DNA from: Candidatus Babelota bacterium
GTDB taxonomy: Bacteria; Babelota; Babeliae; Babelales; JABDEC01
Length of the DNA stretch: 64,000 nt
NCBI GenBank assembly: GCA_013286795.1
Contig: JABDFA010000009.1
Coordinates: 6,023 to 70,022 of the forward strand
Direction: 5' to 3'
A model generated the notes under the pieces. The model ran no database searches. It saw only the letters and a list, made by a program, of their open reading frames with translations, and was not told the origin of the DNA. Made by a program: the position numbers and the translations under genes. How positions within the stretch are numbered: position 1 is the stretch's first letter; each line of letters starts with the position of its first letter. This document shows positions 1,903-60,379 of the stretch, one piece after another.

Positions 1903-3525
1903 GTGAAGATTAAAATAGTTTTACTTTGTATAATTAGTGTTTTTAAAATATCTGATATTATAAGTGACTGTGAATGTTCTGTTCCCAATTTGAAATATAA
2001 GGGCAATAGGAGCATAGTAAAAATACGCGCAGCAGATTTTAATTATAATCCTGTTGTTGGAAATGCAGCTTACACAATTAATCAACCTGGAATTTATTAT
2101 CTTGAAGATTATGTAACAGCGTCTCCGGAAGTTGATAATCTTTCTTTAATTTATATAAATTCTAGTAATGTAAAATTGAATCTTAATTCTCTTGTTATTA
2201 CTCAAGATAGTAACCATTTTACAAAAAATATTAATGTTGTTGAAATAGCACCCAACGTTACTGATGTTAATATAACTAATGGAGTATTGCAAAATATTAA
2301 TGGTATCGGTGTAAAATCTAATTTAAATGTTAGTAATTTGTATGTATCTAATTTAGTTATAGATAAATTGACAAATTTGGGTATATATTTAAACAATGTA
2401 AGAAATGCAGTTTTATCACAATTCTGTGTAACAAATTGTAATGGATCTAATCCTAATTCTAGTGATGGGGCCGTATCTGGAAAATTACAGAACTGTTCTA
2501 ATATTCGCATATCAAATTCTTATTTTAATTCAAATATAGCGAATGACCTAAATACAGATTCTATAGGATTATTGATAGATAATTGCAGTAGTCTAAAACT
2601 AGAAAATTGTTCCTCTGTTCAGAATCAAGGTAAAAATGCTTATGGATTTGTTATTAGAAACAACTCATCTGCTTGTACTATAAATAATTGTTCCGTTTTG
2701 GGATGCCAGAGTAATAATGGAAGAGCTGTAGGATTCTTATTTGATAATTCATCTTCTAATTCTTTATTAGATTGTATTTCTGAATCTAATCAATCTGTAG
2801 GAGGAAATTGCGCCGGATTTAGTTTTGATGGACAAGCAGGTTACTATTTTTCAGCAAGGTTAAAAAATCTAAATATCATAAATTGTACATCAAAGAATAA
2901 TAAAGCTTTAGGTGCCTCTAACGATGCCTTTGGATTTTCAGGAAACCTTTTAGATTTTGCAATCTTTAGATCATGTAAAGCCATTTCTAATAGTTCAGCA
3001 GATGGCAATGTTTATGGATTTTATAGTGGTGCTGGAACCAATAACTATTTTGAGTCATGTTCAGCTCAAGACAATATTTCAGGTATAAATACAAATTCTG
3101 TTGTTTCAGGATTCGCTTTATTAAATGGTGAACAAAATAGTTCGATTAAAGAAAGCATATCTGTTAATAATTTTAGTTCATCTGGAGAATCCTATGGGAT
3201 ACGTTTAGGCTATAATACTGATACAAATACCCACGTCAATAATATCATTTATAAAAATTATATTGCTAATAATAAAGGCGGTTCTAAGCAGTATGGTTAT
3301 AGAGATTTTGCTTCTATTACTACAACTAACTTAATTGCTAATATTAGCTTTGGTCAGGGAAAAATAAATCCAAGTCCAATATCACAGCTTGTATTGACGA
3401 ATAATATGAATTATATGTTTACATTACCTTCAACTAAGGCTCCTGCTTATGTAGTTGTAGAAAGCAGCACTGGCGAAGTTGCTGAAATAAAAGTAAAACC
3501 GTTTGGTAATTTATCTGTATATTAA
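1903..3525 (+). CDS. secreted right-handed parallel beta-helix repeat protein (pectin-lyase-fold-like)
   Basis: GTG start and a signal-like N-terminus. Many ~22-25 aa N/S/C/G-rich rungs ('NCSNIRISNSYFNSN', 'NCSSLKLENCSSVQNQG', 'NNCSVLGCQSNNGRAVGF', 'FRSCKAISNSSADGNVYGF'). Confidence 0.6.
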   Translation: MKIKIVLLCIISVFKISDIISDCECSVPNLKYKGNRSIVKIRAADFNYNPVVGNAAYTINQPGIYYLEDYVTASPEVDNLSLIYINSSNVKLNLNSLVITQDSNHFTKNINVVEIAPNVTDVNITNGVLQNINGIGVKSNLNVSNLYVSNLVIDKLTNLGIYLNNVRNAVLSQFCVTNCNGSNPNSSDGAVSGKLQNCSNIRISNSYFNSNIANDLNTDSIGLLIDNCSSLKLENCSSVQNQGKNAYGFVIRNNSSACTINNCSVLGCQSNNGRAVGFLFDNSSSNSLLDCISESNQSVGGNCAGFSFDGQAGYYFSARLKNLNIINCTSKNNKALGASNDAFGFSGNLLDFAIFRSCKAISNSSADGNVYGFYSGAGTNNYFESCSAQDNISGINTNSVVSGFALLNGEQNSSIKESISVNNFSSSGESYGIRLGYNTDTNTHVNNIIYKNYIANNKGGSKQYGYRDFASITTTNLIANISFGQGKINPSPISQLVLTNNMNYMFTLPSTKAPAYVVVESSTGEVAEIKVKPFGNLSVY

Positions 3526-3530
3526 CCACA

Positions 3531-3560
3531 CCCCCGGTCATGGTGAGCCTGTCGAACCAT
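3531..3560. repeat. single GC-rich repeat arm ('cccccggtcatggtgagcctgtcgaaccat')
   Basis: Same module as 29377..29415 ('ccccccgcgctcgtggtgagcttgtcgaaccat'). It is the reverse of the 36564/46247 arms ('gctcgtatggttcg'). It contains the ATG used by ORF 3540. Confidence 0.8.
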
Positions 3561-4379
3561 TTTAAAAATGTAACTTTAAGCTTAGGGTTATTTTTAAGCT
3601 TTAATATTTTTTCAGAAAAATTTATTGATTTTATGAAAGCATCTGAACATTTTAATTCAGAGTGTTTATATAATAAGAATTGGAAAAATATACAAACTAC
3701 TTTTGATAACTTTATAGATAACATTACAGTTTCTAAATCTTCTAGAATCCCCAAAATTATTCATCAGATTTGGTTAGGTGGGCCATTCCCGGAAAGATAT
3801 AAAACTTTGCAAAATAGCTGGATAAAAAATCATCCTGATTGGACCTATATTTTGTGGACAGATGAATCAGTTGAAAGATTTGGTCTTAAAAATAAAGCGC
3901 TTTACAATAAAGCTAAAAACTTAGGTGAAAGATCAGATATAGTTCGCTATGAGGTTCTAGAAAGATTTGGCGGGTTATATATTGATACTGATTTTGAATG
4001 CATAAAATCTTTTGATATTTTACATCATATTTGCGATTTTTATACAAGTGTTGGTTATGGTCCGGATCCTGTTATTTTGTGTGGTCTTATTGGTTCTGTT
4101 CCAGCACACCCTATTCTTAAAGCTTGCATAGAAACTATGAAAAGAAAAGATTCTGAAAAAGACTCTTTTACTGATATCTTAAATAGAACTAGTATATTTC
4201 ATTTTACAAAATGCTTTCTTAATAATTATACTAAATCTTCAATAGCTTTTCCGGTAACATTTTTTTACCCTTTACCTGATTGTGCAAGAAATAGTAAATT
4301 AAAAAACTATTTAAAACCGGAAAGCTTTGCTGTGCATCATTGGCATCTTTCCTGGAATAATGGGAAAATAGGAGATTAA
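3540..4379 (+). CDS. GT32-family (Och1/Gly_transf_sug-like, DxD) glycosyltransferase
   Basis: 'IPKIIHQIWLGGPFPERYKTLQNSWIKNHPDWTYILWTDESV' and 'RSDIVRYEVLERFGGLYIDTDFECI' match the GT32 sugar-binding/DxD signature. Start is uncertain: the ATG at 3540 lies in a repeat, and the next ATG is at 3633. Confidence 0.75.
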   Translation: MVSLSNHFKNVTLSLGLFLSFNIFSEKFIDFMKASEHFNSECLYNKNWKNIQTTFDNFIDNITVSKSSRIPKIIHQIWLGGPFPERYKTLQNSWIKNHPDWTYILWTDESVERFGLKNKALYNKAKNLGERSDIVRYEVLERFGGLYIDTDFECIKSFDILHHICDFYTSVGYGPDPVILCGLIGSVPAHPILKACIETMKRKDSEKDSFTDILNRTSIFHFTKCFLNNYTKSSIAFPVTFFYPLPDCARNSKLKNYLKPESFAVHHWHLSWNNGKIGD

Positions 4380-4436
4380 GTGTGAAAAAGAATTTTGATC
4401 ATATATTAAATCTCTTTCTAAAAGTTGACTCTCTCT

Positions 4437-4586
4437 CCGTTCGCCCTGCCTGCCCGGCGAAGCTCAAAGAGCGAAGTCGGGAGTATCCGTCGAAGCCTTT
4501 GGCGAAGACGGATGTATCGAAGGGTGAATATACATTGCGTTCATGGATTCGATACGTTTGCTTCGCAAACACTCACCACGAACGGG
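4437..4586. repeat. GC-rich palindromic repeat element (chimeric, ~150 bp)
   Basis: Starts 'ccgttcgccctgcc...' and ends '...gttcatggattcgatacgtttgcttcgcaaacactcaccacgaacggg'. The right half closely matches the right half of the 48089..48207 element. Confidence 0.8.
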
Positions 4587-4618
4587 TTTTGAATTCTAGA
4601 AGAAATCTGATTTATATC

Positions 4619-5569
4619 ATGTTCTTTATTTTGTTTAAGATAATTGATGTTTACTCTTTTTGTCCATTAAATAGAGCTGATTTGGTTCTGTTTTCTTATG
4701 ATAGACCATTGCAACTTTATTCTTTCCTTGAGTCTGTAAAAAAGTATATTTTTGGCATTGAAGAAATACATGTAATTTACCGTGTAAGTAATAATGAATT
4801 TGAATCTGGTTATGATATAGTAAAAAAAGATTTTGCTGATGTGATTTTTCACAAACAATTAAAAGCAGATGATTTTAAACCATTAACTCTTGAATCAATT
4901 TTTAATAATGGTTCTAGATATATAATCTTTGGTGTAGATGACATAATAGTTAAAGATTATGTAAATTTAGGTACATGCATTAATTATCTTGAAAAATCTA
5001 ATTCTTATGGTTTTTACTTACGCATGGGCAAAAATATTGTTGAGTGTTATATGCATTTTAATGAACCTACACCAGTTCCAAAAATGAACCAAATCTCCCC
5101 CCCGGTCACCCTGAGCGAAGCCCGTAGGGCGCAGTCGAATGGGTCTCCTGAGTATTTATTAACTAATGTGTATAATGGAGTCTTTCAGTGGTCATTAAAT
5201 GATGGTAAAGGCGATTGGAAATACCCCAATAATCTTGATATGACAATTTACAGAAAGTCTGATCTTAAACAACTTTATAATTACAATTTCCAAAATCCTT
5301 CTGCATTAGAAGCAGTTTGGGCAGATAATGCAAATTATAACCAAAGAGGGTTATGCTTTGAACAATCAAAGATCGTTAATCTTCCATTAAATTTGGTCAT
5401 AGATGAAGCTCGAAATTTAGATAATCGCAATTCTTCTCTTTTTAATACCAAAGAATTACTTGATAAATTTATGTCAGGATTCAAAATCGATATAAATAAA
5501 TTCTATAGAATCAATAACCTAGCACCCCATGCTGCAATTGTTCCTACATTTATTCCAAGAACAATCTAA
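4619..5569 (+). CDS. GT-A-fold-like putative glycosyltransferase carrying an in-frame repeat insertion
   Basis: 'LVLFSYDRPLQLYSFLESV' (GT-A beta1-alpha1-like) and 'YIIFGVDDIIV' (DxD-like). I chose the ATG at 4619 because the track's GTG at 4382 reads through repeat 4437..4586. No family assigned. Confidence 0.45.
   Translation: MFFILFKIIDVYSFCPLNRADLVLFSYDRPLQLYSFLESVKKYIFGIEEIHVIYRVSNNEFESGYDIVKKDFADVIFHKQLKADDFKPLTLESIFNNGSRYIIFGVDDIIVKDYVNLGTCINYLEKSNSYGFYLRMGKNIVECYMHFNEPTPVPKMNQISPPVTLSEARRAQSNGSPEYLLTNVYNGVFQWSLNDGKGDWKYPNNLDMTIYRKSDLKQLYNYNFQNPSALEAVWADNANYNQRGLCFEQSKIVNLPLNLVIDEARNLDNRNSSLFNTKELLDKFMSGFKIDINKFYRINNLAPHAAIVPTFIPRTI
5097..5143. repeat. short GC-rich repeat module inserted in frame in CDS 4619..5569
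   Basis: 'ccccccggtcaccctgagcgaagcccgtagggcgcagtcgaatggg' encodes 'PPVTLSEARRAQSNG'. A near-identical module in yidD (53553..53594) encodes 'PVTLSEARSAKSNG'. Confidence 0.85.
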
Positions 5570-6573
5570 CTTTCTTCTTCTCTTTCTTTATCTTCTTTTT
5601 CCTCTTTAGATTCTGGTTTTGTTTCCGGCATTTGCTCTGCTGCATATTCTGATATTATTCTTGCTAAATCCATAGGACAAGAAGTTGATTCTTCAATTTT
5701 TTGTGCACGTAATTCTTTAGCTCTATCAAATAACCTTAATATAACAGGAGGAAGCTTTTTCTTATAATTTGGGTAATATTTAAGAATCTTATTTTCATCA
5801 AATTTTGCATTCTTGCACAGAAGAGTTCTTATTGTATTTATAAATTTATTTAGTGTTCTTTTCGAATAATTGAAATATGTTAAATCAATTATTATTTGTT
5901 CTAATGGTGTGAATTCTCCGACAATGTTGTAAGGGTTTCCTGTGCCCTTTGTGGTAAATCGTTCACTGGTTTCATCATCAACATATACTGCTAGACTGTT
6001 AACATCAGCTCCATGATTAATTAAATATTCAGCAATTTTTAAATTGGTTTTTGGTGAAACAATGGCCGTGTTAAGAGGTGTTAGGAGTTTCATGTCTCCA
6101 TAGGGTAGATTCCCATTAATATTTGCTTTATGTTCTTCTACTAACTCTTTTACAATATCCAATCTATTTAATTTAACTGCTGTACGTAATGTTTCGCCAA
6201 AATAAGTATCAGATCTTGCTCCTTTTCTTATTAACTGCATTAATAGAGAAAGTTTTTTTGTAGGATCTTTTTTTAGTCTATTATAGTGAGTAATGATATT
6301 CACCATTTCATTATCAAGTATTTGTTTATACAAAATAATAAGTGGCATTATATTAAGATTTAGCAACACATTATGAAACTCTCTTTTATTTTTAAGAAAA
6401 TTTTGTTTTAGTTTTTCAAGAACTTGATTTCCTGGAGCAATTTGCTTATTTTCGAGATAATTTTCTATAAAAGGTATGAGTTTATAAGGATTTTCTTCAG
6501 TACCAATACTTAATAATATATTAGAAAAGGAACCAAAAAGTATGGTAATTAAAGTGATTTTAAATTTATTCAT
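5566..6573 (-). CDS. ankyrin-repeat protein with signal-like N-terminus, F-box-like motif and acidic tail
   Basis: ANK units ('LRTAVKLNRLDIVKELVEEHKANING', 'TPLNTAIVSPKTNLKIAEYLINHGADVNS'). 'CPMDLARIISEY' lies near the C-terminus, followed by the tail 'KPESKEEKEDKEREEES'. Confidence 0.7.
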   Translation of the reverse strand: MNKFKITLITILFGSFSNILLSIGTEENPYKLIPFIENYLENKQIAPGNQVLEKLKQNFLKNKREFHNVLLNLNIMPLIILYKQILDNEMVNIITHYNRLKKDPTKKLSLLMQLIRKGARSDTYFGETLRTAVKLNRLDIVKELVEEHKANINGNLPYGDMKLLTPLNTAIVSPKTNLKIAEYLINHGADVNSLAVYVDDETSERFTTKGTGNPYNIVGEFTPLEQIIIDLTYFNYSKRTLNKFINTIRTLLCKNAKFDENKILKYYPNYKKKLPPVILRLFDRAKELRAQKIEESTSCPMDLARIISEYAAEQMPETKPESKEEKEDKEREEES

Positions 6574-6677
6574 TTACGGCCTCCATTTTTAAATAATATT
6601 CAGATATGAATATATTAGCTTATTTTATCAGTGAAATTCAATATTTTTTTAAAAAATATGATTTTACTCTGTAATTT

Positions 6678-7898
6678 TCAACGTCTTTTTATAATTGTTG
6701 ATTCAAGAGTTTGAATAATATCATTTTTATTTGCTTGTTTTGCGTACCATAAAGCATTGTGGCCGAAAGTATCTACTTTTTTAATATTAGCGCCATGCTC
6801 AATTAGCTGTTTAACTACAGAATTGTTGGTAAAAATTGTTGCATAAGTAAGCGGAGTTAGACCGTCTCTGTCAGTAGAATTTATATCTGAACCCTTGGAT
6901 ATTAAGAAATCTATGATAGAAGATAATCCAAACTTTATAGCTTGCATAAGTGGCGTACGACCCTTAAAATCTTTAGAATTTATATCAAACCCTGGAGATA
7001 AATATTTGTCTACAGAATAAGCGAAGCAAACAGCTCCAGGGTTTTTATATCTTTTTTTTAAATCAATATATTTTGGTGAATCTAATTTTGGATATTTAGG
7101 TTTTTCTTTTTTATAATATTCAGCCAAAAAATACATTAAAGATTCATCTGTTTTAAAATCACTTAAAGGGTTATTCATATTATATTTGTATAAAATTTTA
7201 CTTATAAATTTAAATTTATTGCCACACATTTCTAGAGCAGGGAACATGATTGCAAGATCCCATGTCATTGTTAAAAATGAATCATCATATATAAGATCCT
7301 GAAATTTTATATTTTGAAATAACCAAGAATAATAGGTTCGCAAATGAGTTGCTAAAAAATTTGATCTGAAGCCTCTGTTTTTGATAACATCGTCGCTATA
7401 TGCAGCTGCAAAACCGGTTCCATATTCTATTGGATCACATTCATATTGTCCATATGTTAACCAGACGTTAGAATCTTGATATACATCATTTAAATATTTT
7501 AAAACATTCTCATCTTTTAAACTATCATCTCCATCTAACATAACTACAATTTCATCATGATCACACAAGCTTATTTCTGACCATAAATTTCCCATTGCTC
7601 CACGTCTTACTCTAATTTTTCTTAAAGTTACTAAATCTCCTACATTTTTTTCTTTTATATAAGCTTCGACCAGTTCTGATGTTTGTGGATCATCATTGTA
7701 TACTGCCCCATCTGCAATGTATATTATTCTAAATTTATTTTTATCATAATTTTGATTTATAGCAGAATCTAAGTTTTTCTTATAAAATGAAGCATTTTTA
7801 TAAGATGGTATTATTATTGCAAATCTTTTATCTTCACTTAACACAGTTGAAATTATGTTTAATATAATAATAGTGAGTAGTAAATTTAATTTTATCAT
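6678..7898 (-). CDS. GT2-family glycosyltransferase fused to C-terminal ankyrin repeats
   Basis: N-terminal anchor 'LNLLLTIIILNIISTVL'. GT2 start 'FAIIIPSYKNASFYKKNLDSAINQNY' and DxD 'VVMLDGDDSL'. C-terminal ANK units 'GRTPLMQAIKFGLSSIIDFLISKGSDINSTDRDGLTPLTYA...LIEHGANI'. Confidence 0.75.
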   Translation of the reverse strand: MIKLNLLLTIIILNIISTVLSEDKRFAIIIPSYKNASFYKKNLDSAINQNYDKNKFRIIYIADGAVYNDDPQTSELVEAYIKEKNVGDLVTLRKIRVRRGAMGNLWSEISLCDHDEIVVMLDGDDSLKDENVLKYLNDVYQDSNVWLTYGQYECDPIEYGTGFAAAYSDDVIKNRGFRSNFLATHLRTYYSWLFQNIKFQDLIYDDSFLTMTWDLAIMFPALEMCGNKFKFISKILYKYNMNNPLSDFKTDESLMYFLAEYYKKEKPKYPKLDSPKYIDLKKRYKNPGAVCFAYSVDKYLSPGFDINSKDFKGRTPLMQAIKFGLSSIIDFLISKGSDINSTDRDGLTPLTYATIFTNNSVVKQLIEHGANIKKVDTFGHNALWYAKQANKNDIIQTLESTIIKRR

Positions 7899-7978
7899 GA
7901 ATACCCTTTCTTTTTGATTTGTATAAGAAGTATTATAGATTAAAGTTTATTTTGAAATAATTTAAAAAAAGGTGGGTC

Positions 7979-8773
7979 GTGAAGTCAATAATAAAAAAAA
8001 TATTTTTGCTTATTATTTTAAATCTAAATTGTTTTTTATTAGCCCAAGACAAATTTAAAGTGGGGCTTCTTATAGTTGCCACAGGAAGATATATTAATTT
8101 TGTTCCAGGTTTGATTGACTCCGCAAATAAACATTTTCTTAAGGATCACAAAGTTACTTATTTTGTTTTTACTGATGATACAAGTTTTATGTATACTGAT
8201 AGTGTAAATATTTACCAAGAAAAATTGACATGGCCCTTTGCTACTATGATGCGCTTGGAAACCTATTATAAAAATAGAACCTATTTTAATGATATGGATT
8301 ATGTTTTTGCATTAGACGCAGATATGCTTTTTGTTGATGATGTTGGTAATGAAATATTATCAGAAAGAGTTGCGACCTTGCATCCAGGTTTTTATTTAAA
8401 AAAAGATTTGCCCTATGAACGAAATATTATTTCAAAAGCTTGTGTTAGTCAAAAAGAAGATAATTACTATTTTGCAGGGGGTTTTTTTGGTGGCATAAAA
8501 CAAGAGTTTATTAATTTAGTAAAAACTAATTCAGAAAATATTCAAGATGATTTGAAAAGAGGCTATATTGCTGAGTGGCATGATGAAAGTCACAATAATC
8601 GTTATTTTATAGATAATCCTCCAACAAAAATTCTTTTACCATCTTATTGTTACCCGGAAGATGCGGCATTACCCCATCTTTATGACTCGTATAAAAATAT
8701 TTTAAACATGCCAAGAAAGTTAATTGCCTTGGCAAAAAAACACTCTGAATATCAGTTACCAAATAAAAAATAG
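7979..8773 (+). CDS. GT6-family (histo-blood-group ABO / alpha-1,3-Gal(NAc)-transferase-like) glycosyltransferase
   Basis: Collinear with remembered human GTA motifs: 'HKVTYFVFTD', 'DYVFALDADMLF' (DxD), 'TLHPGFY', 'YYFAGGFFGG', 'AEWHDESHNNRY', 'PTKILLPSYCY'. GTG start after RBS 'aaaggtggg'. Signal-anchor 'IFLLIILNLNCFLLA'. Confidence 0.85.
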   Translation: MKSIIKKIFLLIILNLNCFLLAQDKFKVGLLIVATGRYINFVPGLIDSANKHFLKDHKVTYFVFTDDTSFMYTDSVNIYQEKLTWPFATMMRLETYYKNRTYFNDMDYVFALDADMLFVDDVGNEILSERVATLHPGFYLKKDLPYERNIISKACVSQKEDNYYFAGGFFGGIKQEFINLVKTNSENIQDDLKRGYIAEWHDESHNNRYFIDNPPTKILLPSYCYPEDAALPHLYDSYKNILNMPRKLIALAKKHSEYQLPNKK

Positions 8774-9475
8774 AGGTGTTTTAGAAAAGCAAATTAAAGT
8801 TCTGTGCTGGTCCTGCGTATAAGATGCACCTATTTGTGTAGATCCTAAAATTTTATAATATTTAAAACCAACAGAATTGAATCTTTCAATTTCTGTTTTA
8901 TCATCATCGTGACCTTCAAAAATTACATATTTAAAATTAGATAGAAATTTTAAAAATCTTTGTTTGTCATTTACCCATTTTAATATACTTGTACAAAGAA
9001 CTATATCATAATTATTACCTATTATTTGCTCATAATTATCTATATTAAAATCTAATTGTTTAATTTCCATGGGTATATTAAATGCTTGTTGTAATAGATG
9101 CGCTGCTTCAATCATTCTAGGGTTTCCAACCTTTGCTAGTTGCTCATTTGGCAAATCTACTCCAACACTTGATTTTGCTCTTCTAAATTTTAAAATATAC
9201 ATCGATGACATACCAATGTTGCAACCAAGTTCTAGAATTTTTTTGTTTTTAAAATTTAATGAATCTTTAATTAAATTCCATCTGTTTTCCCAAGCTCTTT
9301 CGCCGCCTATTTTTTCTCCATTTATTGTAATATTATAGTAAGATTTTCCATTTGATCCTCCTGATGGTATAGATAGTGCTTTTTTTAGAAGATCAATATT
9401 TATATCTATTAGGTTTTCAGAAGATTGGGCCATTGTAAATATAGTTGTGAATGATATTAAAGTAAGTTTTTTCAT
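8756..9475 (-). CDS. class I SAM-dependent methyltransferase with signal-like N-terminus
   Basis: Motif I 'KILELGCNIGMSS'. Downstream acidic 'VGVDL' and 'YDIVLCTSIL' fit the Rossmann MTase layout. Last gene of the minus-strand cluster. Confidence 0.65.
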   Translation of the reverse strand: MKKLTLISFTTIFTMAQSSENLIDINIDLLKKALSIPSGGSNGKSYYNITINGEKIGGERAWENRWNLIKDSLNFKNKKILELGCNIGMSSMYILKFRRAKSSVGVDLPNEQLAKVGNPRMIEAAHLLQQAFNIPMEIKQLDFNIDNYEQIIGNNYDIVLCTSILKWVNDKQRFLKFLSNFKYVIFEGHDDDKTEIERFNSVGFKYYKILGSTQIGASYTQDQHRTLICFSKTPLFFIW

Positions 9476-9476
9476 T

Positions 9477-10112
9477 TTAATTCCTTTTTTCTAATAAATC
9501 TTTTATAAAATTTTGATAATCATCTGGATTATATGAAAGCACGTGATTAAAATCAATAATCATTCTTAATTTATCAATATCATTAATGTTTATTATAGGA
9601 TCAAGATCTATTATATGATATTCATTGCAATCAAATGCTATATTATCAGGTACTAAATCTAAATAAATTACTTTATGTAATATAATTTTGCTTTTTAATT
9701 TTTCAATAAAAATTTTATAAAATTCATTTTGTGCATAAGCATCATATAGCTTTGATGCTCCTTTAAAAGAATAATATTTTAGTTTATTATTTAATGGACA
9801 ATCAACTCTGTATGTTATATAGCCTCTACATAAATTATTTTTATCATAAATTATTTCTTTTAAAGGTGATATATCTTGAAAAAATCCAGTTTTAACTGAA
9901 TGAGCAAAGAAATTGCCAAAAATATAGTCAGATTCCCATATCTTTATATATGTATTATTACTTGGATTTAGGTAAACAACTCTTGAATGTTTATTTTGTG
10001 TGGATTCTTTTATTTTTATACACTCTCTAAGATCAATAGATTCTAATTCTATTATTTTGTAATTAGCATTTAAGTTTGTACTTAAAAAAAACAAGAATAA
10101 ATTAAATAGCAT
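9477..10112 (-). CDS. small protein-kinase-like-fold protein (sugar/LPS-kinase-like), signal-like N-terminus
   Basis: 'TYIKIWE' (beta3 Lys-like), 'VIYLDLVPDNIAF' (catalytic-loop D..N-like) and 'YHIIDLD' (DFG-equivalent Asp). Motif-level resemblance only. Confidence 0.35.
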   Translation of the reverse strand: MLFNLFLFFLSTNLNANYKIIELESIDLRECIKIKESTQNKHSRVVYLNPSNNTYIKIWESDYIFGNFFAHSVKTGFFQDISPLKEIIYDKNNLCRGYITYRVDCPLNNKLKYYSFKGASKLYDAYAQNEFYKIFIEKLKSKIILHKVIYLDLVPDNIAFDCNEYHIIDLDPIININDIDKLRMIIDFNHVLSYNPDDYQNFIKDLLEKRN

Positions 10113-11070
10113 TTACCCACTCGATAAAATTTAAAAGTGTATTAATCCTATTTATATATGTGTGATTATTTTTTACAAAATCCATTAATTCAAAAAGTTC
10201 TTCTTGTTGGATATTTTTTAATTTTTCTAAAGCATCATAAAATAATTGATAAGTATTAGAATTATAAACTATTTTTTTATTAAAGAATTTATAAACTGTT
10301 TCTGAATTAGTGATTCCTATTTGACCGTAGCTTATATTTTTAAAAATCCTACAAGGGATGTATCCTTGTTCACATTGCCATTCTCCTTGTAAGGCTGGAG
10401 CCATAAAGGATTGTTGCGTTAATAAAATATTTTCTTCATTTGTTACATTTGTTAAATGTTCAAAATCGATACCATTTTCTTGACATGCTTTTTTAAATGA
10501 ATCTGTTTTATCTTGATTTCCAAAATTTCCAATACCTATTGTTCCAATAAAATAAATCTTCTTAGATTTTTGAATTTTTTGTATAACAGTTTTATTTTTT
10601 TCTATTTCTTCAGGTAATAGATCAGTTGCCCAGGGCATGTATATTATTCTGTCATAAGGGTTACAAAAAATTCCATTTTCTAATTTAGTTACATTACGTT
10701 CTTCACATTCTAAGGTATAAACTTGTAAATATATACATCTATTTTTTTTTATTAATTCATTATATTTCTCAAAATTACAATTATGTAAAATATAAAAACA
10801 ATCTTCACGCAATGGTATATTTTGATCAGCTTGGCCCTCTGTTAAAAATAAACTATTTGAGAAATCAATATTTTTTAAATCATCTTCTTTATCTAACCAG
10901 AGTGTATTATATCCCATAAAATTGAAAGCTTTAAAAAAAGCGCTATGGATATATGAATGTGTATGACTATGTAATTTGTGACCCCAAATTATTACTTTAT
11001 CAAAACTTAATTTTGCTATTATATTAAAACTCAAAAAAAATTGTAATAAAATTAATTTTTTATATTTCAT
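10102..11070 (-). CDS. hypothetical protein, possible GT-B-like glycosyltransferase
   Basis: ORF in an operon position. Start moved to 'MKYKKLILLQFF' (11070) because the 'MDICIKN' extension overlaps the upstream stop. 'KIYFIGTIG' and 'PCRIFKNISYGQIGITNS' are weakly GT-B/CgeB-like. Confidence 0.3.
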   Translation of the reverse strand: MKYKKLILLQFFLSFNIIAKLSFDKVIIWGHKLHSHTHSYIHSAFFKAFNFMGYNTLWLDKEDDLKNIDFSNSLFLTEGQADQNIPLREDCFYILHNCNFEKYNELIKKNRCIYLQVYTLECEERNVTKLENGIFCNPYDRIIYMPWATDLLPEEIEKNKTVIQKIQKSKKIYFIGTIGIGNFGNQDKTDSFKKACQENGIDFEHLTNVTNEENILLTQQSFMAPALQGEWQCEQGYIPCRIFKNISYGQIGITNSETVYKFFNKKIVYNSNTYQLFYDALEKLKNIQQEELFELMDFVKNNHTYINRINTLLNFIEWVNAI

Positions 11071-11075
11071 ATTTT

Positions 11076-14960
<3,885 letters not shown>

Positions 14961-14965
14961 TTAAA

Positions 14966-22665
<7,700 letters not shown>

Positions 22666-22691: not shown

Positions 22692-24356
22692 TTAAAAATC
22701 AATTCCTGTATCAAATATTACTCCCCATTGATTTAAAGCATAATTTTTTTTGCCAAACTCTATCTCTCCTGCCAATGAAAAATAGGCTGGGTGGCAACCT
22801 ATTGAATAATTAAAACCAAATGATCCAAAAAATTTATTTGACCAACAAGTCGGATGCAATGGTGCCCCAAAATCTATATCTTCTGGCTCTATAAGTATTG
22901 CGTTAATATTGTCTGGAACATTATCAGGAGCACCTGGTGTAGAAATAGTGGATGTGCTTGCGGTTGTTAAATCTATTTGACATACTATTCCAGGAGCTGT
23001 TCCTGGACCCGACAAAGGTAAATCACCTTTTATGCCTAGTTCTCCTTCAAAAAAGCCATTCATGAAAATATGTTGGCTTCTTTTTTCTTTGGTTCTCAGC
23101 CAAAAATTGTATCCTAAATTAAAGAACATTTTGCAATATGTAAATTGAAACATTAATGATCCATCAAACATAAAATCGGCTCCTATTTTTGTTTGACCAG
23201 ATAAAGCATTAGCGGTTCTTTCAGCATTGCTTATAGTAGTTACGTCAGCATCAAATTGTTTTAATAAAAGGAGCTGACTTCCTGCACCATTATTTTTTAG
23301 AGCGAATAACCTTGATTGTTCTGCTTTAAACAAATGGGTTCCAACTGCATAAAGATATATTCCGAAACTTTTATCATTACATCTTTGCCAAATTTTATAT
23401 GCTTCTACTGTAGCGCCAACTTGCCAAGATTTATTTGCTCCGATTACAGGCTCAAATAAAAATTCAGCTGTAGGTCTGGAGCCTGTAGGTGCAACTACAT
23501 GCATACTGCCAGCAAAGTAAGAACAATCATTTCTATAAAAATCATAACCTAAATCAAAATGAAATCCTGCAACTCCTGTTTTAGTTTGTTTGCATAATGG
23601 GAACTTTCCATATTTTAAAGTGGGTACTAATCCAAAAGGTAAATCACCATTTAAAGCTTGAGAAATTGAACTATAAACTGGATTCACAGCGCTACAGTCT
23701 GTAGAAAATAATCCTGTTGGAAACGCTTGCGAGGTTTGTCCGGTTCCAGTGGAACATAAATTAAAATCTGTTTGACATCTAACTACCGGAACATCAATTC
23801 TTGTCCACAGTCCACATTTTATTTCACTTAAATCAAAAAAGAGGTCAAAATCTGCTATGAAATTATTAACTTCTGGTTTTGCACAAACAGTTCCTGTAGG
23901 TCCTGGTTGTAAGCCTCCTAATATATTTCCATTACTTAACCCTATTTGACTACCATCAATATCAAAAGTTTGATTATTGCCAGGTATACCAACAGTCATA
24001 CAATCTTTACAATTAAAAAAGAACCATTTTGCTGTATCTTTGTTATCAAAAGAGTTTTGATATTCAAAAGTTATGTTTAAGTTTTTTGTAAAACTATTAT
24101 CATCCATAAAGTTTTTACCATTAAGATATTGTAAAATTCTTCTTACTGAATTTGAATCTTGTGGTCTAAAAGAAAAAAAAGTTTTACCAAAAAGATTACC
24201 ATCACAACATTTGAATCTAGTTACATTGTCACATTCATTTTGTGTAAAAACAACAGATTGAAAAATAGAATTTGTGTCTTGACAGCAATCATTGTTAGTA
24301 TAGCAAATGTTTATTTGTAACAAGACAATAAGAGATAATATGCGTTGAATATTCAC
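22692..24356 (-). CDS. putative outer-membrane beta-barrel protein with Cys-rich N-terminal region
   Basis: Signal peptide 'ILSLIVLLQINICY'. Cys-rich 'NNDCCQDT...ECDNVTRFKCCDG'. Alternating amphipathic segments and a C-terminal '...FDTGIDF' (terminal Phe as in OMPs). Lies 26 nt upstream of paralog 3. Confidence 0.45.
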   Translation of the reverse strand: MNIQRILSLIVLLQINICYTNNDCCQDTNSIFQSVVFTQNECDNVTRFKCCDGNLFGKTFFSFRPQDSNSVRRILQYLNGKNFMDDNSFTKNLNITFEYQNSFDNKDTAKWFFFNCKDCMTVGIPGNNQTFDIDGSQIGLSNGNILGGLQPGPTGTVCAKPEVNNFIADFDLFFDLSEIKCGLWTRIDVPVVRCQTDFNLCSTGTGQTSQAFPTGLFSTDCSAVNPVYSSISQALNGDLPFGLVPTLKYGKFPLCKQTKTGVAGFHFDLGYDFYRNDCSYFAGSMHVVAPTGSRPTAEFLFEPVIGANKSWQVGATVEAYKIWQRCNDKSFGIYLYAVGTHLFKAEQSRLFALKNNGAGSQLLLLKQFDADVTTISNAERTANALSGQTKIGADFMFDGSLMFQFTYCKMFFNLGYNFWLRTKEKRSQHIFMNGFFEGELGIKGDLPLSGPGTAPGIVCQIDLTTASTSTISTPGAPDNVPDNINAILIEPEDIDFGAPLHPTCWSNKFFGSFGFNYSIGCHPAYFSLAGEIEFGKKNYALNQWGVIFDTGIDF

Positions 24357-28314: not shown

Positions 28315-28767
28315 TTAAATATTCTTTCTTGCTTCTTGACAATACTTAACGCATTCATGGCACCTGAATATACAGTTTTTACAAGCATCTACTACATCAG
28401 CCATCCATTCCTTAAATTCCTCTCCATAAGTATATGGCGGTTGAGTTTGATCCTGTTCTAGTTGAATCATGCAATTGGTACAAGCTTCCTGGGTTCTATT
28501 AGTAGCTTCTATTGCATGATCATACAATTCAATACATTCTGATTTTTTGCATTCTTTAATATGTTGTGTAAAATGATCTGCAAATCTTTTACAGCTTTCA
28601 ATTGTTTGGTCACAAATTACTAAACATTTATCTACTTGTTCAGCACATTCTAGTTCATTATTTTTTTCAAAAGTGTCTGTCAGTTTTTTACAAATCTCTA
28701 TACATTTTTTGCAAATTATTTCACATTGATTACAGCTTTCTAAAAATTCTTTTGATTTATGATTCAT
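28315..28767 (-). CDS. Cys-rich four-helix-bundle-type (DUF326/YhjQ-like) putative metal-binding protein
   Basis: Repeated C-x2/3-C spacing ('CNQCEIICKKCIEICKK', 'CAEQVDKCLVICDQTIESC', 'ACTNCMIQ', 'ACKNCIFRCHECVKYCQE'). Tandem paralog of 28782..29198. Confidence 0.55.
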   Translation of the reverse strand: MNHKSKEFLESCNQCEIICKKCIEICKKLTDTFEKNNELECAEQVDKCLVICDQTIESCKRFADHFTQHIKECKKSECIELYDHAIEATNRTQEACTNCMIQLEQDQTQPPYTYGEEFKEWMADVVDACKNCIFRCHECVKYCQEARKNI

Positions 28768-28781
28768 AATTACCTCCTTAA

Positions 28782-29198
28782 TTATTTAGATGCATTTATA
28801 CATTCATAACATCTTCTAGCGCATTCATTACATTTTTTTATTACATCTTCACATGCATCAATACATTCTTCCTGATTAGCTTTGCAATAATTTATACTCT
28901 TCTCACATGATGAAATGCATTCTTGGCATGTTTGAATACAGCGTTGCAAAACTGTAACACAGTGTTTGTCATCACAATTTTTTATATGCTCATTACATTG
29001 ATCTATCAATATTTTACTTGCTCCTATAGTTTCTCTACAAATACTTACACATTTGCCTACATCTTCTGCGCAGGCCTCTAAATTTTTTACGCTACACGCA
29101 CCTACTAAAAGTTGGCACACATCTATACATTTTTCACACTTTTCTATACATGTACTACATGCTTCAGCTAAACCTTTTGGTAAATGTTTATTATTCAT
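28782..29198 (-). CDS. Cys-rich four-helix-bundle-type (DUF326/YhjQ-like) putative metal-binding protein
   Basis: 'ACSTCIEKCEKCIDVCQ', 'CAEDVGKCVSICRE', 'CIQTCQECISSCEKSINYC', 'CIDACEDVIKKCNECARRCYEC'. Confidence 0.55.
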   Translation of the reverse strand: MNNKHLPKGLAEACSTCIEKCEKCIDVCQLLVGACSVKNLEACAEDVGKCVSICRETIGASKILIDQCNEHIKNCDDKHCVTVLQRCIQTCQECISSCEKSINYCKANQEECIDACEDVIKKCNECARRCYECINASK

Positions 29199-29376
29199 TT
29201 AACTCCTTAAATTTATATATTCTTAACTTCTTTGTTCAGTGTTGCAAAATTTTTTATACAAGATCAACGTTTTATTAGACTTTATACCTAATTAGATTCG
29301 TCGATTTCTCAGACAAGCTTTTAGGCATTACCAAGTTCTAGGCAAGTAAGTGTACTAGCGTATACAAAGAGTTTTT

Positions 29377-29415
29377 CCCCCCGCGCTCGTGGTGAGCTTG
29401 TCGAACCATACGAGC
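29377..29415. repeat. single GC-rich repeat arm
   Basis: 'ccccccgcgctcgtggtgagcttgtcgaaccatacgagc'. Related to 3531..3560 and the inverse of arms in 36564..36677. Confidence 0.8.
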
Positions 29416-29560
29416 AAATCAAATAATTCATAATATTTTAAGCTGATATCGCAAGAGATCTATTATAACAAGGAACTTATATCCTGCTGGACAAATTGTC
29501 TAATTGTGTTATTATTATATAAATAGTTAATTTATAAATATTATATTTAGGGGCAAAAAA

Positions 29561-30401: not shown

Positions 30402-30878
30402 ATGAAAAAAAATATATTTTTTGGGTTATTCTTAATAAATTTTTGTTCAACTGTGTTTACAATGAGTTTTAAAAATTCAGAGATTCCTGAAGATCTTAAA
30501 AATTCTATTAGAGCTGCATGTGATAAAGAGTATAAAGAAAAAACAGCAGAGTGTTTGATAGCAGAAGTGTTAATTGAAGAATTTATAAAAAAGGATGCTA
30601 AAAATTTGAACATAGCAGATCAATTGGGAAAAACATTACTAATCTACTCAGTTATATATGGACCATCCAGGATAATAAGATATTTGGTAAAAAATAAAGT
30701 AGATATTAATGCTCAAGATAAGAAGGGTAATACTGCATTAATATATGCAGCTAAATTAAGAAGAAAGAGCGTTGTTGATTTATTGGTTAATGCAAAAGCA
30801 GATGTTACAAAAAAGAATAAAGCTGGCAAGACTGTTTTTAATATGATTGAGCCAGAATTCAAAGATATTGATAAATGA
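30402..30878 (+). CDS. small ankyrin-repeat protein with signal peptide
   Basis: 'GKTLLIYSVIYGPSRIIRYLVKNKVDINAQDKKGNTALIYAAKLRRKSVVDLLVNAKADV'. Confidence 0.75.
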   Translation: MKKNIFFGLFLINFCSTVFTMSFKNSEIPEDLKNSIRAACDKEYKEKTAECLIAEVLIEEFIKKDAKNLNIADQLGKTLLIYSVIYGPSRIIRYLVKNKVDINAQDKKGNTALIYAAKLRRKSVVDLLVNAKADVTKKNKAGKTVFNMIEPEFKDIDK

Positions 30879-32022: not shown

Positions 32023-32081
32023 AGCTACAACTTAAGTGTTTTAAAATAATAATTAATTATATAAAAAGAGCTTTATCCAAT

Positions 32082-32330
32082 CCGTTCGCCCTGAGCGACC
32101 TCTGAGCGAGCGTTTACGCGAGTCGATGAGGGAGTCGAATGGGTAAAAATTTTCTTAAAAATTTTATATTTTTTTGCATGAAATAATTTTTTTAAATATT
32201 CAATTATAATAATATTTAAAAACTTAATCTTTTTTTTAGAATACAGGAAACCCGTTCGACTCATTCTTCAACTCTCCTTCGACTCGCTTTGCTCGCTCAG
32301 GATCGTTCAGAATTCGCTCAGGGCGAACGG
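32082..32330. repeat. composite GC-rich inverted-repeat (MITE-like) element, copy 2 of 4
   Basis: 17-bp perfect termini 'ccgttcgccctgagcga' / 'tcgctcagggcgaacgg'. GC-rich arms flank an AT-rich spacer whose 5' part is conserved with copies 1 and 3. Lies between convergent genes. Confidence 0.9.
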
Positions 32331-32362
32331 AGAAAGGGTAACTTTTAAACTTAGACTGATAA

Positions 32363-34181: not shown

Positions 34182-35072
34182 GTGAATATAAAACATGTTT
34201 TAATTGTAATTGTCTTTTTACTTGTAGAATCAACAGATTGTATGATTGAGTTAGAAACCCCGGCCAACCAGCTTTTCAGGGGAGCGCAAGAAGGAAAATT
34301 GGGTTTAGTTAAAAGTGCGTTAGATGCTCGCGTGGATGTCAATGTTACAAGAAAAGACAGAGTTGAAATTGACGTTTCTTATGAAGGATTTACACCATTG
34401 ATGCACGCTGCAGAATATGGCCAAGATGAAATAGTTAAATATTTATTAAAAGCTAAAGCTCATATCAATCAACGAAATGAATATGGTGATACTGCATTAA
34501 GAATTGCAGCTGGTTCTAGAGTTATAGGAACATCTGAAGTTGTTCAAATTTTACTGAATGCAAAAGCTAATCCAAATTTAGTGGAATCCTGGACTGGGAC
34601 TACAGCACTGAGCGCTACAAGAAATATTGAAATGATTCAGCTTTTATTGCAATTCAAAGCGGACCCGAATATTAGGCATAAAGATAGCTCTACATTTTTG
34701 ATGGATTTATTTGAAGAGGATAGCTGCAAGGAAAATTTAGTTGATATATTATTAAAAGTTGGAGCAGATGTTAATTTGCAAGACTCTACGGGTATGAATG
34801 TTCTTATGAGGGCAATGTGCCGAAGTTATTGTAATAAAAAAACTATAATTAAATTTCTTAAAGCAGGTATAAATTTATTGCAAGTTGATATGTGGAAAAA
34901 CAATGTCTTAAGTTATATGAAGCGATATAAAATAACTGATCAATTTATAAAAACTTTGATTGAACGTTTGATTGTTCAACAAAAAAGACAGGTTAAAGGT
35001 GAAATTAGTAAACATTTGCTACCAGATTTGGCAAATATTGTTTTTGAATATTTAATTAATCTAGATATTTAA
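34182..35072 (+). CDS. ankyrin-repeat protein with signal-like N-terminus and C-terminal F-box-like motif
   Basis: ANK units ('GFTPLMHAAEYGQDEIVKYLLKAKAHINQRNEYGDTALRIAA'). 'LLPDLANIVFEYL' at nt 35016..35054. Confidence 0.8.
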   Translation: MNIKHVLIVIVFLLVESTDCMIELETPANQLFRGAQEGKLGLVKSALDARVDVNVTRKDRVEIDVSYEGFTPLMHAAEYGQDEIVKYLLKAKAHINQRNEYGDTALRIAAGSRVIGTSEVVQILLNAKANPNLVESWTGTTALSATRNIEMIQLLLQFKADPNIRHKDSSTFLMDLFEEDSCKENLVDILLKVGADVNLQDSTGMNVLMRAMCRSYCNKKTIIKFLKAGINLLQVDMWKNNVLSYMKRYKITDQFIKTLIERLIVQQKRQVKGEISKHLLPDLANIVFEYLINLDI

Positions 35073-36563: not shown

Positions 36564-36677
36564 GCTCGTATGGTTCGTCCTTCGATTTCGTGCTACGCAC
36601 TTCACTCAGGATGACCGGGGGAGGGAGGAAAAAAGTCCAGTCATGCTGAGCTTGTCGAAGCATCACCACGAGCGCGC
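36564..36677. repeat. GC-rich repeat pair filling the ogt-grpE spacer
   Basis: 'gctcgtatggttcgtccttcgatttcgtgctacgcacttcactcaggatgaccgggggaggg' followed by 'gtcatgctgagcttgtcgaagcatcaccacgagcgcgc'. Confidence 0.85.
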
Positions 36678-39016: not shown

Positions 39017-39194
39017 TTAATCTTAATTATAAAATCGCACAAAACTATTCAAATTGTCAATATAGATATGATTTATATAAAAAAACCCTAAAGATTAGGT
39101 TTTTTTGGAGGGGATAAATAAACGTGAGGGTGATTTCTGCTAGAATTGGACATAATTTGGATTTGTTAACTATTAATAAGTATTTTTTTCTATT

Positions 39195-39408
39195 CCGTTC
39201 GCCCTGAGCGACCTCTGAGCGAGCGTTTACGCGAGTCGAATGAGGGAGTCGAATGGGTAAGAATTTTTTAAGAAGTTAATATTTTTATAAATTTCTTTTT
39301 TAAAATATTAAATTAAGAATAATAACAACCCATTCGACTCATTCTTCAACTCTCCTTCAGCTCGCTTGGCTCGCGAAGGATCGTTCAGAATTCGCTCAGG
39401 GCGAACGG
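39195..39408. repeat. composite GC-rich inverted-repeat (MITE-like) element, copy 3 of 4
   Basis: Near-identical to copy 2 in both arms and has the same 17-bp termini. Lies just downstream of ssb. Confidence 0.9.
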
Positions 39409-39457
39409 AAATAAGAAGTCTAATATTATTTTTCTTATAAGAAACCTTAGAATTTAA

Positions 39458-50573: not shown

Positions 50574-50661
50574 GCAAGAGTGGCGGAATTGGCAGACGCA
50601 CTGGACTTAGGATCCAGCTCCCCAAAAGGGAATGTGGGTTCGACTCCCTCCTCTTGCACCA
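50574..50661 (+). tRNA. tRNA-Leu (anticodon UAG), class II long variable arm, CCA encoded
   Basis: Acceptor gcaagag/ctcttgc. Anticodon arm ctgga-'ctTAGga'-tccag. Variable arm tccc-caaaa-ggga. T loop 'ttcgact'. 88 nt. Confidence 0.85.
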
Positions 50662-50696
50662 TTTTTTTATCTCTAATAATAAAAGGGAGAAATAGT

Positions 50697-60083: not shown

Positions 60084-60153
60084 GATTTAGAATTAATCAA
60101 ATATTTTTAGATCAATCTAGTTTTTTTGGTTATTTAATAATTATTTATTATTT

Positions 60154-60346
60154 CCGTTCGCCCTGAGCGACCTCTGAACGAGCTTTTAAGCGAGTTGAAG
60201 AGGGAGTCGAATGGGTAAAAAATTATTTTTTTAAATATATTAAATTACAGCAATAACTAAAGTTTTATATTATTGTATAAAAAAATATTCCTTCGACTCT
60301 ATCTTCGGCTCCTTACGTCGCTCAGATATCGCTCAGGACGAACGGG
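60154..60346. repeat. composite GC-rich inverted-repeat (MITE-like) element, copy 4 of 4
   Basis: Left arm 'ccgttcgccctgagcgacctctgaacgagcttttaagcgagttgaagagggagtcgaatggg'. Right arm '...ccttacgtcgctcagatatcgctcaggacgaacggg' resembles copy 1. Lies between convergent genes. Confidence 0.9.
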
Positions 60347-60379
60347 TTTTATTATATTTTGGGTTAGTGATAGGTTATA

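Follow-up and report, generated by a model that had tools for sequence, protein, structure and literature searches.

Signal-bearing glycosyltransferases beside collagen-like fibre genes in a Dependentiae-like bacterium: a candidate exported glycan-building gene set

The 64,000-nucleotide stretch of Candidatus Babelota DNA analyzed here (the window; contig JABDFA010000009.1) carries, at positions 3540-11070, an island of nine tightly packed genes for glycosyltransferases, tailoring enzymes and ankyrin-repeat proteins, next to a block of genes for collagen-like fibres. All eight enzyme and ankyrin assignments were checked, and the inventory that the original prediction had read from the letters alone proved correct by Pfam, AlphaFold/Foldseek and family profiles. 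Island and fibre block comprise the following features:

3540..4379, + strand: GT32-type glycosyltransferase, 279 residues (PF04488, E 8.7e-16, 58.8 bits against a cut-off of 23)
4619..5569, + strand: GT-A-fold glycosyltransferase of a Pfam-less family, 316 residues (start from public gene call P0133; AlphaFold, Foldseek)
5566..6573, - strand: ankyrin-repeat protein with a signal-like N-terminus, 335 residues (Ank_2, Ank_3 and Ank matches)
6678..7898, - strand: GT2 glycosyltransferase with a C-terminal ankyrin fusion, 406 residues (PF00535, 3.8e-08; Ank_2, 1.6e-28)
7979..8773, + strand: DXD-type GT6, 264 residues, homologue of the ABO / alpha-1,3-Gal transferase catalytic domain (PF03414, E 2e-49)
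8756..9475, - strand: class-I S-adenosylmethionine (SAM)-dependent methyltransferase, 239 residues (weak Methyltransf_11/12/23/25 matches)
9477..10112, - strand: small putative protein-kinase-like-fold protein, 211 residues (family profile, conserved residues)
10102..11070, - strand: GT-B-fold glycosyltransferase of a Pfam-less, highly conserved family, 322 residues (AlphaFold, Foldseek)
11076..22665, - strand: three tandem secreted collagen-like fibre proteins of ~1285 residues, candidate acceptors (PF01391, E 1e-75 to 1e-79)

The GT32 protein contains a Gly_transf_sug domain with the DXD-type motif 'DTD' ('YIDTDFE') and weakly resembles the TcdA/TcdB catalytic domain (PF12919, E 1.5e-8). In the GT2-ankyrin fusion, PF00535 covers residues 28-162 (33.9 bits against a cut-off of 23.3) and the sequence includes the DXD-type 'LDGDD'. 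The GT6 protein, with 1413 homologues, scores 168.4 bits against a cut-off of 25 and matches a3GT, GTA/GTB and BoGT6a in the PDB at E 1e-38 to 1e-35; it aligns over the whole catalytic domain with bovine a3GT and human GTA, whose DVD falls on its D113-A-D115, and W200-HDESH is invariant among homologues, giving the motifs of the metal-dependent subtype. The methyltransferase passes the threshold of one model, Methyltransf_11 (22.7 against a cut-off of 21.2), the other methyltransferase models falling below theirs.

Single-sequence searches of PDB, Pfam and NCBIfam with the GT-A, kinase-like and GT-B open reading frames (ORFs) returned no match, and these proteins were resolved only by family alignments with AlphaFold/Foldseek or profiles. 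The GT-A family has 590 homologues, bears a Pfam domain only where fused to GT2, and keeps an invariant V-D-D motif in a 42-sequence alignment; the model of the window protein (predicted local distance difference test, pLDDT, 89.6) matches GnT-I, POMGnT1, TarP and SpsA in Foldseek (E 1e-7 to 1e-5, TM-score ~0.45). The GT-B family is larger, with 2775 proteins (E ≤ 0.001) at 50-63% identity and a mean column identity of 51%; its named homologues come from Babeliales or Dependentiae. The GT-B model (pLDDT 93.7) matches OtsA, TreT, Gtf3 and GtfC in the PDB with TM-scores of ~0.5, and its best BFVD match, a Hokovirus protein (TM-score 0.72, E 4e-18), is better than any PDB entry. The kinase-like family comprises 127 clusters, with K57, D152 and D169 invariant and conservation of N157 at 90% or more. 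At E 1e-4, its 40-member profile hits PknG and RIO kinases in the catalytic loop/DFG region, the PknG match spanning only 36 residues and RIO1 Pfam matching 6 of 40 family members; this thinly supports a protein-kinase-like fold for the 9477-10112 product, which is possibly a sugar or glycan kinase. A sister strain carries the island genes at 75-90% identity.

Each fibre protein has 188-201 G-X-Y triplets, with threonine at Y in ~75% of them (140-157) and at X in ~50%. C-terminal FG-GAP-like repeats pass the Pfam cut-off of 23 in one of the proteins (FG-GAP_2 gives 37.7 bits in fibre 2 and 21.5 bits in fibre 1, and does not match fibre 3). Fibre 3, fibre 2, fibre 1 and the GT-B, kinase-like and methyltransferase genes all lie on the same strand; the fibre ORFs overlap or abut each other, and the gaps from fibre 1 to GT-B, GT-B to the kinase-like gene and that gene to the methyltransferase are 5, -11 and 1 base pairs (bp). 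The fibre block thus lies 5 bp upstream of the GT-B gene, and this same-strand array gives physical support to the link with the Thr-rich fibres suggested from the sequence alone. A promoter and terminator scan told little in DNA so rich in AT: it counted 93 promoter-like sites where 77±10 would be expected, and terminator-like sites were fewer than in shuffles.

The island sits in a plainly bacterial setting: the window encodes DnaE, ArgRS, ThrRS, EF-Ts, PyrH, Frr, SSB, GrpE, MnmA, TrxB, trigger factor and Dps, together with tRNA-Lys and tRNA-Leu. Its guanine-plus-cytosine (GC) content outside the fibre genes is 25-33%, and ankyrin and WD40 proteins with N-terminal hydrophobic segments are abundant. 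Where the nearest homologues of the island proteins are named, they come from Candidatus Babeliales or Dependentiae metagenome-assembled genomes (MAGs). The genome style matches published Dependentiae, since Chromulinavorax has signal peptides on 44% of its coding sequences and 78% of its ankyrin proteins (PMC6561590), and every one of the seven TM6 genomes in another comparison has the genes for type II secretion (PMC4776705). The host is probably an amoeba or another protist.

All nine island products begin with a hydrophobic segment, among them the GT32 and the ankyrin protein, which the original prediction had not named for this feature. Heuristic inspection of charge, hydrophobicity and -3/-1 sites finds a Sec-like architecture in eight of the nine, whereas the GT-A enzyme has a degenerate remnant only, its signal apparently truncated by a repeat element. 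The uncharged stretches are 14-20 residues long; lysine or arginine precedes them in all products save the kinase-like protein, small residues occupy -3/-1 sites in eight of nine, and neutral or acidic residues follow. The catalytic fold begins a few residues after the stretch (from residue 25-27 in GT6), as in GT6 '...CFLLA/QDKFKVGLL' and GT-B '...FNIIA/KLSFDKVIIWGH'. In the family alignments these segments differ in length and sequence, like signal peptides, and no alignment contains a stem region; the Golgi type-II picture is therefore inapplicable. Judged from such features, the island N-termini look like bacterial Sec (signal peptidase I) signal peptides, not Golgi signal-anchors.

The hydrophobic N-termini that the original prediction had pointed out are thus real, but its view of them as Golgi-like type-II anchors does not hold in the face of stemless proteins with 14-20-residue stretches, mostly positive n-regions and -3/-1 sites. 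Nor does its suggestion that anchors keep the catalytic domains in the cytoplasm agree with the charge distribution, which predicts the opposite, N-in, C-out orientation. The alternative offered alongside, that the enzymes are exported, fits the data, and the accompanying remark that nucleotide-sugar-dependent enzymes are unexpected in a bacterial periplasm is well taken.

An N-terminal signal is not specific to the island: a hydrophobicity scan reaches at least 2.0 in 27 of 49 window ORFs, a few of them via internal segments or as multi-pass proteins, and in 0 of 14 housekeeping proteins checked. About half of the window's non-housekeeping proteins carry such a signal. We considered and rejected an artefact of AT-richness or start-codon choice, because hydrophobic N-termini are absent from the housekeeping proteins of the same window and from equally AT-rich viral homologues, and are kept in related loci of higher GC.

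Among the signal-bearing proteins outside the island are tandem WD40 beta-propeller paralogues (41000-42481 and 42490-44004, - strand) with near-identical signal-like N-termini ('MNKLF[RK]KIFLLT...NISAMHDHESYSILPSE') and at least seven more signal-like ankyrin-type proteins (83-1024, 30402-30878, 34182-35072, 45405-46166, 53788-54450, 54447-55040 and 58868-59614). To judge by their N-termini, the ORFs at 53788 and 54447 form a tandem pair of paralogues, the ankyrin call coming from Pfam for the first and from precomputed domains of a Logan copy for the second.

The same architecture recurs in other bacteria. A scan with the GT6 alignment over one genome per GTDB species found 410 relatives; the species of the window was not in the set scanned, and the best match was 55%. 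The locus counts that follow refer to the best ~80. These best 80 of the 410 belong to Dependentiae/Babeliales and Chlamydiota (Parachlamydiaceae, Simkaniaceae and Rhabdochlamydiaceae), with a few MAGs labelled otherwise. Within 10 kilobases (kb) of GT6 lie GT2-domain homologues in 75 of the ~80 loci, GT-A-family members in 39, GT-B-family members in 25 and GT32 in 24, and an N-terminal hydrophobic segment is found on 82-88% of the GT6, GT-B, GT32, GT-A and GT2 homologues of these Dependentiae and Chlamydiota loci. The relative L003, whose GT6 is 64% identical over a trimmed alignment, has the order GT32, GT-A family ... GT2-Ank(-), GT6(+) ... GT-B family; it carries the same GT2-ankyrin fusion and adds an epimerase and a GT47-like gene. 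In a Babeliales MAG (L006), the ORFs run GT32, GT-A-family, GT2, GT6.

In related loci, the tagging extends to nucleotide-sugar dehydratases and epimerases. In locus L004, GT6 adjoins Gmd-/Fcl-like enzymes of the short-chain dehydrogenase/reductase (SDR) type, FUT8/NodZ-like transferases, GDSL enzymes and methyltransferases. Gmd-, Fcl- and epimerase-like SDR enzymes with signal-like extensions of 20-30 residues occur there (L004, 10799-12809), in L003 (4595-5578) and in many of L009-L083; across loci, roughly three quarters of SDR-type ORFs have the Rossmann GxxGxxG at residue 25-42 instead of ~7-11. An N-terminal extension is present on 8 of 8 FUT8/NodZ-like proteins, and related clusters also hold signal-bearing methyltransferases. 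Methyltransferase and kinase-like genes are paired in both other glycan clusters examined (L250 and L252).

No conserved flippase, polymerase, ligase or initiating phosphoglycosyl transferase lies near the clusters. An ORF with at least six predicted transmembrane segments is found within 10 kb in only 15 of 81 loci, and the recognizable ones encode unrelated transport proteins, e.g., the two BPD_transp_1 permeases of L003; in the window, a hydrophobicity scan detects no multi-pass membrane protein in 3540-24356. The clusters therefore do not have the make-up of Wzx/Wzy- or ABC-dependent O-antigen or capsule clusters, which makes it less likely that a conventional lipid-linked pathway is encoded at this place.

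In two Dependentiae genomes, the loci L071 (AP025250.1, 708877-729536) and L062 present long runs of ~20 consecutive ORFs of 220-340 residues around GT6, nearly all with signal-like N-termini. Further predicted transmembrane segments are almost absent from these runs, four collagen-like GXT genes stand at one end, and most of the families are unknown.

Viruses hold many relatives of the same enzymes. IMG/VR contains at least 554 relatives of GT6 and at least 105 of the GT-B family, many in giant-virus bins, and cyanophages in GenBank have the two families within a single cluster that also includes GT11 or guanosine diphosphate (GDP)-fucose genes and methyltransferases. Yet a hydrophobic N-terminus is present in only 2/80 and 1/80 of the phage and giant-virus homologues, the rest beginning at the first beta-strand; Bacteroides BoGT6a likewise begins at the fold. 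An extension common in the bacteria and absent from the viruses points to a lineage-specific addition in protist-associated intracellular bacteria; it is neither a property of the enzyme families nor an AT-rich artefact.

GT6 and GT-B homologues stand together in Synechococcus phages B23 (L248, 221447-229714) and DSL-LC02 (L249, 91916-102407), with GT11, GT4 and GT25 genes, methyltransferases and GDP-mannose dehydratase / GDP-fucose synthase as neighbours. In phage S-SCSM1, the GT-B homologue falls under features named 'DNA beta-glucosyltransferase', 'coatomer subunit alpha' and alpha-1,2-fucosyltransferase, any one of which may be the match.

In a neighbour-joining tree of 57 GT6 sequences, built without support values, the window protein groups with a Babeliales MAG and a Logan relative; Dependentiae and Chlamydiota are intermixed, viral sequences form a clade among them, and vertebrate GT6 is distant. 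DXD is present in all 57. The window GT6 is 50-64% identical to members of the Dependentiae/Chlamydiota clade and 37-38% to vertebrate GT6. The phylogenies called for by the original prediction, run here for GT6, thus place the protein in a bacterial clade, and a eukaryotic origin is not supported. Horizontal acquisition as a feature of this genome fares no better: the GC comparison (0.277 for the island, 0.298 for window positions 24001-64000) gives no compositional sign of recent acquisition, two Babeliales-type relatives share part of the gene order, and the enzyme families have hundreds of members among Dependentiae and Chlamydiota. The resemblance to viral machinery, by contrast, is borne out by the IMG/VR, giant-virus and cyanophage relatives and by the Hokovirus match. 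Of that interpretation, then, exported enzymes, the fibre link and viral kinship stand, while there is no support for anchors of the Golgi type, for domains retained in the cytoplasm or for an acquisition that is recent or eukaryotic; the deeper history is clearly one of exchange among co-resident bacteria and viruses.

The DXD-type GT6 of Parachlamydia has been expressed and is metal-dependent (PMC3961637), which makes the window GT6 a new member of a known subtype. The Parachlamydia acanthamoebae enzyme belongs to the same CAZy family and clade and shares DXD and HDESH, the window protein being 50-55% identical to Parachlamydiaceae/Protochlamydia sequences. The paper has it as one of two DXD-containing bacterial GT6 known in 2014, a rare exception, whereas 410 genome loci are found here; the passages of the paper drawn on here mention neither a signal peptide nor cluster context, while most loci here are signal-tagged and have GT2, GT-A and GT-B neighbours. 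In relatives and phages, GT6 has GDP-fucose genes and fucosyltransferases for neighbours, none of which is identifiable in this island.

What the island makes, and where, has to be read from this combination of features. Textbooks place Leloir glycosyltransferases, like the enzymes that modify nucleotide sugars, in the bacterial cytoplasm. Signal peptides that are conserved in the bacteria and absent from cytoplasmic viral versions suggest that the island enzymes are active outside the bacterial cytoplasm, and five transferases, a methyltransferase and a kinase-like enzyme suggest the stepwise assembly of one decorated oligosaccharide. Our first, if tentative, choice is that the island may encode an exported enzyme set that builds a glycan from host nucleotide sugars, with the GXT fibres as the likeliest acceptor. 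Sec would export the enzymes to the periplasm or cell surface, possibly onward via type II secretion or vesicles, where host-derived uridine diphosphate (UDP)- and GDP-sugars, SAM and ATP would feed them. GT32, GT-A, GT-B and GT2-Ank would build a chain, to be capped by the DXD-type GT6 with an alpha-linked galactose or N-acetylgalactosamine; the product would be a methylated, possibly phosphorylated oligosaccharide, and the three GXT collagen-like fibres would receive it. An obligate intracellular life means that the host can supply the extracytoplasmic space, and there is a precedent: the vacuole of Chlamydia trachomatis receives both the glycogen enzymes that the bacterium secretes and imported host UDP-glucose (PMC4829429).

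A wider form of this reading, which we hold possible but doubtful, takes in the whole Leloir pathway of Dependentiae and environmental Chlamydiota: dehydratases, epimerases, GT-A and GT-B enzymes including GT6, methyltransferases and kinase-like proteins would have been retargeted by Sec signals, would be fed by the host and would decorate GXT fibres or other surface proteins, making up a bacterial counterpart of the Golgi lumen. The single enzymes belong to known families or to large unnamed ones. What would be unusual, as predicted from the N-termini, is that a whole pathway dependent on nucleotide sugars is systematically given Sec-type tags, and in two phyla. In the searchable literature on Dependentiae and chlamydial glycosyltransferases with signal peptides, no description of an exported pathway was found.

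Known systems resemble this scheme in part. The chlamydial glycogen enzymes set a precedent for a Leloir-type transferase that works outside the bacterium on a host nucleotide sugar, but they use type III secretion, make glycogen and include housekeeping enzymes with acquired signals, whereas Sec-type signals on a heteroglycan pathway are seen here (PMC4829429). Vertebrate Golgi GT6 and GT32 have homologous catalytic domains and, like the island enzymes as predicted, would place the catalytic side outside the cytoplasm, as in the Golgi lumen; they differ in having a tail, a transmembrane segment and a long stem, in place of which the island enzymes have a ~20-25-residue extension that looks cleavable, and they lie outside the bacterial clade. 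The clusters of cyanophages (Synechococcus phages DSL-LC02, B23 and S-SCSM1) and of giant viruses (Klosneuvirus-type multidomain glycosyltransferases) share GT6, GT-B, methyltransferases and GDP-fucose genes, with homologues that are 30-52% identical, are free of the hydrophobic extension and presumably work in the cytoplasm of the infected cell. Gtf3/GtfC (DUF1975), which rank with the best PDB folds matched by the GT-B model, extend O-glycans on serine-rich repeat adhesins and so exemplify a GT-B enzyme whose substrate is a repetitive Ser/Thr-rich fibre; they are cytoplasmic, accessory-Sec-coupled and only ~11% identical to the GT-B protein, so membership of their family is not supported.

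For the fibres, the closest analogy is BclA of Bacillus anthracis, a collagen-like glycoprotein O-glycosylated on threonine in GXT repeats. The window fibres share the G-X-Thr collagen-like repeats and are likewise encoded beside glycosyltransferase genes. The enzymes that glycosylate BclA, however, have no signal peptides and act in the cytoplasm of the mother cell, and the rhamnose and anthrose genes are absent here. Glycosylation of the window fibres is a candidate modification, proposed by analogy with BclA Thr-O-glycosylation and with the glycosylated fibrils of giant viruses. Secreted GXT collagen-like ORFs stand beside GT6 clusters in 5 other loci, one of them in a complete Dependentiae genome (raw count of a direct triplet search), which is suggestive.

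Several points weigh against the exported, fibre-decorating pathway. Cleavage and export are predicted by heuristics, and the uncharged stretches of 16-20 residues could be uncleaved anchors instead. Nucleotide sugars, NAD(P)H, SAM and ATP would all have to reach the periplasm, surface or vacuole, an assumed step. The GXT fibres are the likeliest acceptor, and the acceptor is the least certain step of the scheme: BLAST finds no fibre homologue within 10 kb of GT6 in other genomes, a collagen-like ORF is missing within that distance in ~75 of 80 loci, so that the fibre link is not general, and L003, the closest syntenic relative, has no fibre beside its GT-B gene. Repeat insertions at or in two island genes make some erosion possible. 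Finally, the source is probably a Dependentiae-like intracellular bacterium on the strength of nearest homologues, synteny and genome style.

The absence of fibres near most GT6 clusters also speaks for a serious rival that we consider rather improbable, that the island encodes secreted effectors which modify host proteins or glycoconjugates in the cytosol or at the vacuole membrane, as do Legionella Lgt/SetA and the clostridial glucosylating toxins, with ankyrins as target adaptors. The signal peptides fit this reading equally well, and the ankyrin modules, present both as the GT2 fusion and as a separate secreted protein, help it; so do the signal-bearing ankyrin and WD40 proteins abundant in the window and in Chromulinavorax, whose proteins of this kind are taken to be effectors (PMC6561590), and the faint similarity of the GT32 protein to TcdA/TcdB. 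However, five glycosyltransferases, a methyltransferase and a kinase-like protein, joined in relatives by dehydratases, epimerases, fucosyltransferases and GDSL enzymes, suggest one complex glycan and not single-hit toxins; three of the island genes are operon-linked to the fibres, and the phage and giant-virus homologues reside in glycan-synthesis clusters with GDP-fucose genes.

Unlikely in our estimate, though likewise a serious rival, is a conventional surface-glycan cluster whose N-termini are tethers or mis-predicted, with catalysis in the cytoplasm and a lipopolysaccharide, capsule or protein-linked glycan exported by machinery encoded elsewhere. Established biochemistry speaks for it, as Leloir glycosyltransferases, SDR enzymes, SAM methyltransferases and kinases need cytoplasmic cofactors; some uncharged stretches reach 18-20 residues, topology was called heuristically, and the gene content is like that of O-antigen-like and cytoplasmic cyanophage clusters. 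Against these stand the N-side positive charges in eight of nine products with acidic or neutral residues after the stretch, which predict N-in, C-out; folds that start within a few residues of the stretch; N-termini as variable as signal peptides; homologues in Bacteroides, phages and giant viruses that need no tether; and the clusters' want of conserved flippase, polymerase, ligase and initiating phosphoglycosyl transferase genes.

Very improbable is a decaying remnant, in which GC-rich elements have eroded the island and a defined product has been lost: element copies do supply the GT32 start, precede and probably truncate the GT-A signal and insert 25 residues in GT-A, but nine of nine reading frames are intact, GT6 keeps its catalytic DXD, GT-A its VDD and the kinase-like protein its K/D/N/D, the insertion preserves the frame and falls where the model is less confident (mean pLDDT 68-81), and the sister strain shares the genes at 75-90% identity.

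Should the exported pathway prove true, intracellular bacteria would make glycans outside their own cytoplasm from the nucleotide-sugar pool of the host, and the single precedent of Chlamydia glycogen would extend to complex glycoconjugates and to a second phylum. Part of the large, largely unannotated signal-peptide proteome of Dependentiae would acquire a biochemical role, and a single glycan module would be seen to circulate between protist-associated bacteria, cyanophages and giant viruses. The GT-B family, with >2700 proteins (E ≤ 0.001), and the GT-A family, with ~590, both large and Pfam-less, would gain names.

The elements that interrupt the island recur throughout the window, and the copy next to the GT-A gene is the following:

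4418..4600, no strand assigned: GC-rich repeat element, MITE-like (miniature inverted-repeat transposable element), upstream of and in frame with the GT-A gene; related copies at ~3527-3560 and 5083-5160

Further copies, located by blastn-short or a GC scan of the window, lie at 1067-1262, 29368-29422, 32073-32335, 36586-36658, 39192-39412, 53546-53598 and 60153-60349. They are mostly intergenic in this AT-rich DNA and contain motifs such as CCGTTCGCCCTGAGCGA and GGTCACCCTGAGCGAAGC...AGTCGAATGGGT. The start codon and first 7 residues of the GT32 protein ('MVSLSNH') derive from the element, whereas the sister-strain GT32 (P0002) keeps an intact signal, 'MPQKIILGLLLFLSFNIFP'. In GT-A, a strain-specific, in-frame insertion of 25 residues at ~5093-5167 comes from the same type of element and is unique in the family alignment; the region around it (residues 161-190) has a mean pLDDT of 68-81. 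The longer ORF 4382-5569 was rejected as the GT-A gene because its first 79 codons are repeat element, the true start being at 4619. In-frame coding insertions of this kind recall the palindromic elements of Rickettsia.

Two secreted proteins of ~550 residues flank the island-plus-fibre block, at 1903-3525 (+ strand) and 22692-24356 (- strand). They are not paralogues, matched nothing in Pfam or the PDB and were left out of the model; the 1903-3525 protein is Asn/Ser-rich, with beta-helix-like repeats.

Elsewhere in the window, the mechanical GTG start (50580) of the trigger factor ORF (50580-52001, + strand) falls inside tRNA-Leu (50574-50661), so the first ~40 residues are probably untranslated and the true start lies downstream. 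The product of 61256-63952 (+ strand; 898 residues) combines several N-terminal transmembrane segments with a partial sigma-54-interaction (AAA+) match (profile positions 90-163), an unusual architecture for so reduced a genome. Adjacent genes at 28315-28767 and 28782-29198 (- strand) encode small Cys-rich proteins that match no Pfam model at E 1e-3; with CxxC-type repeats, e.g., 'CNQCEIICKKCIEICKK', they may be metal-binding helical bundles.

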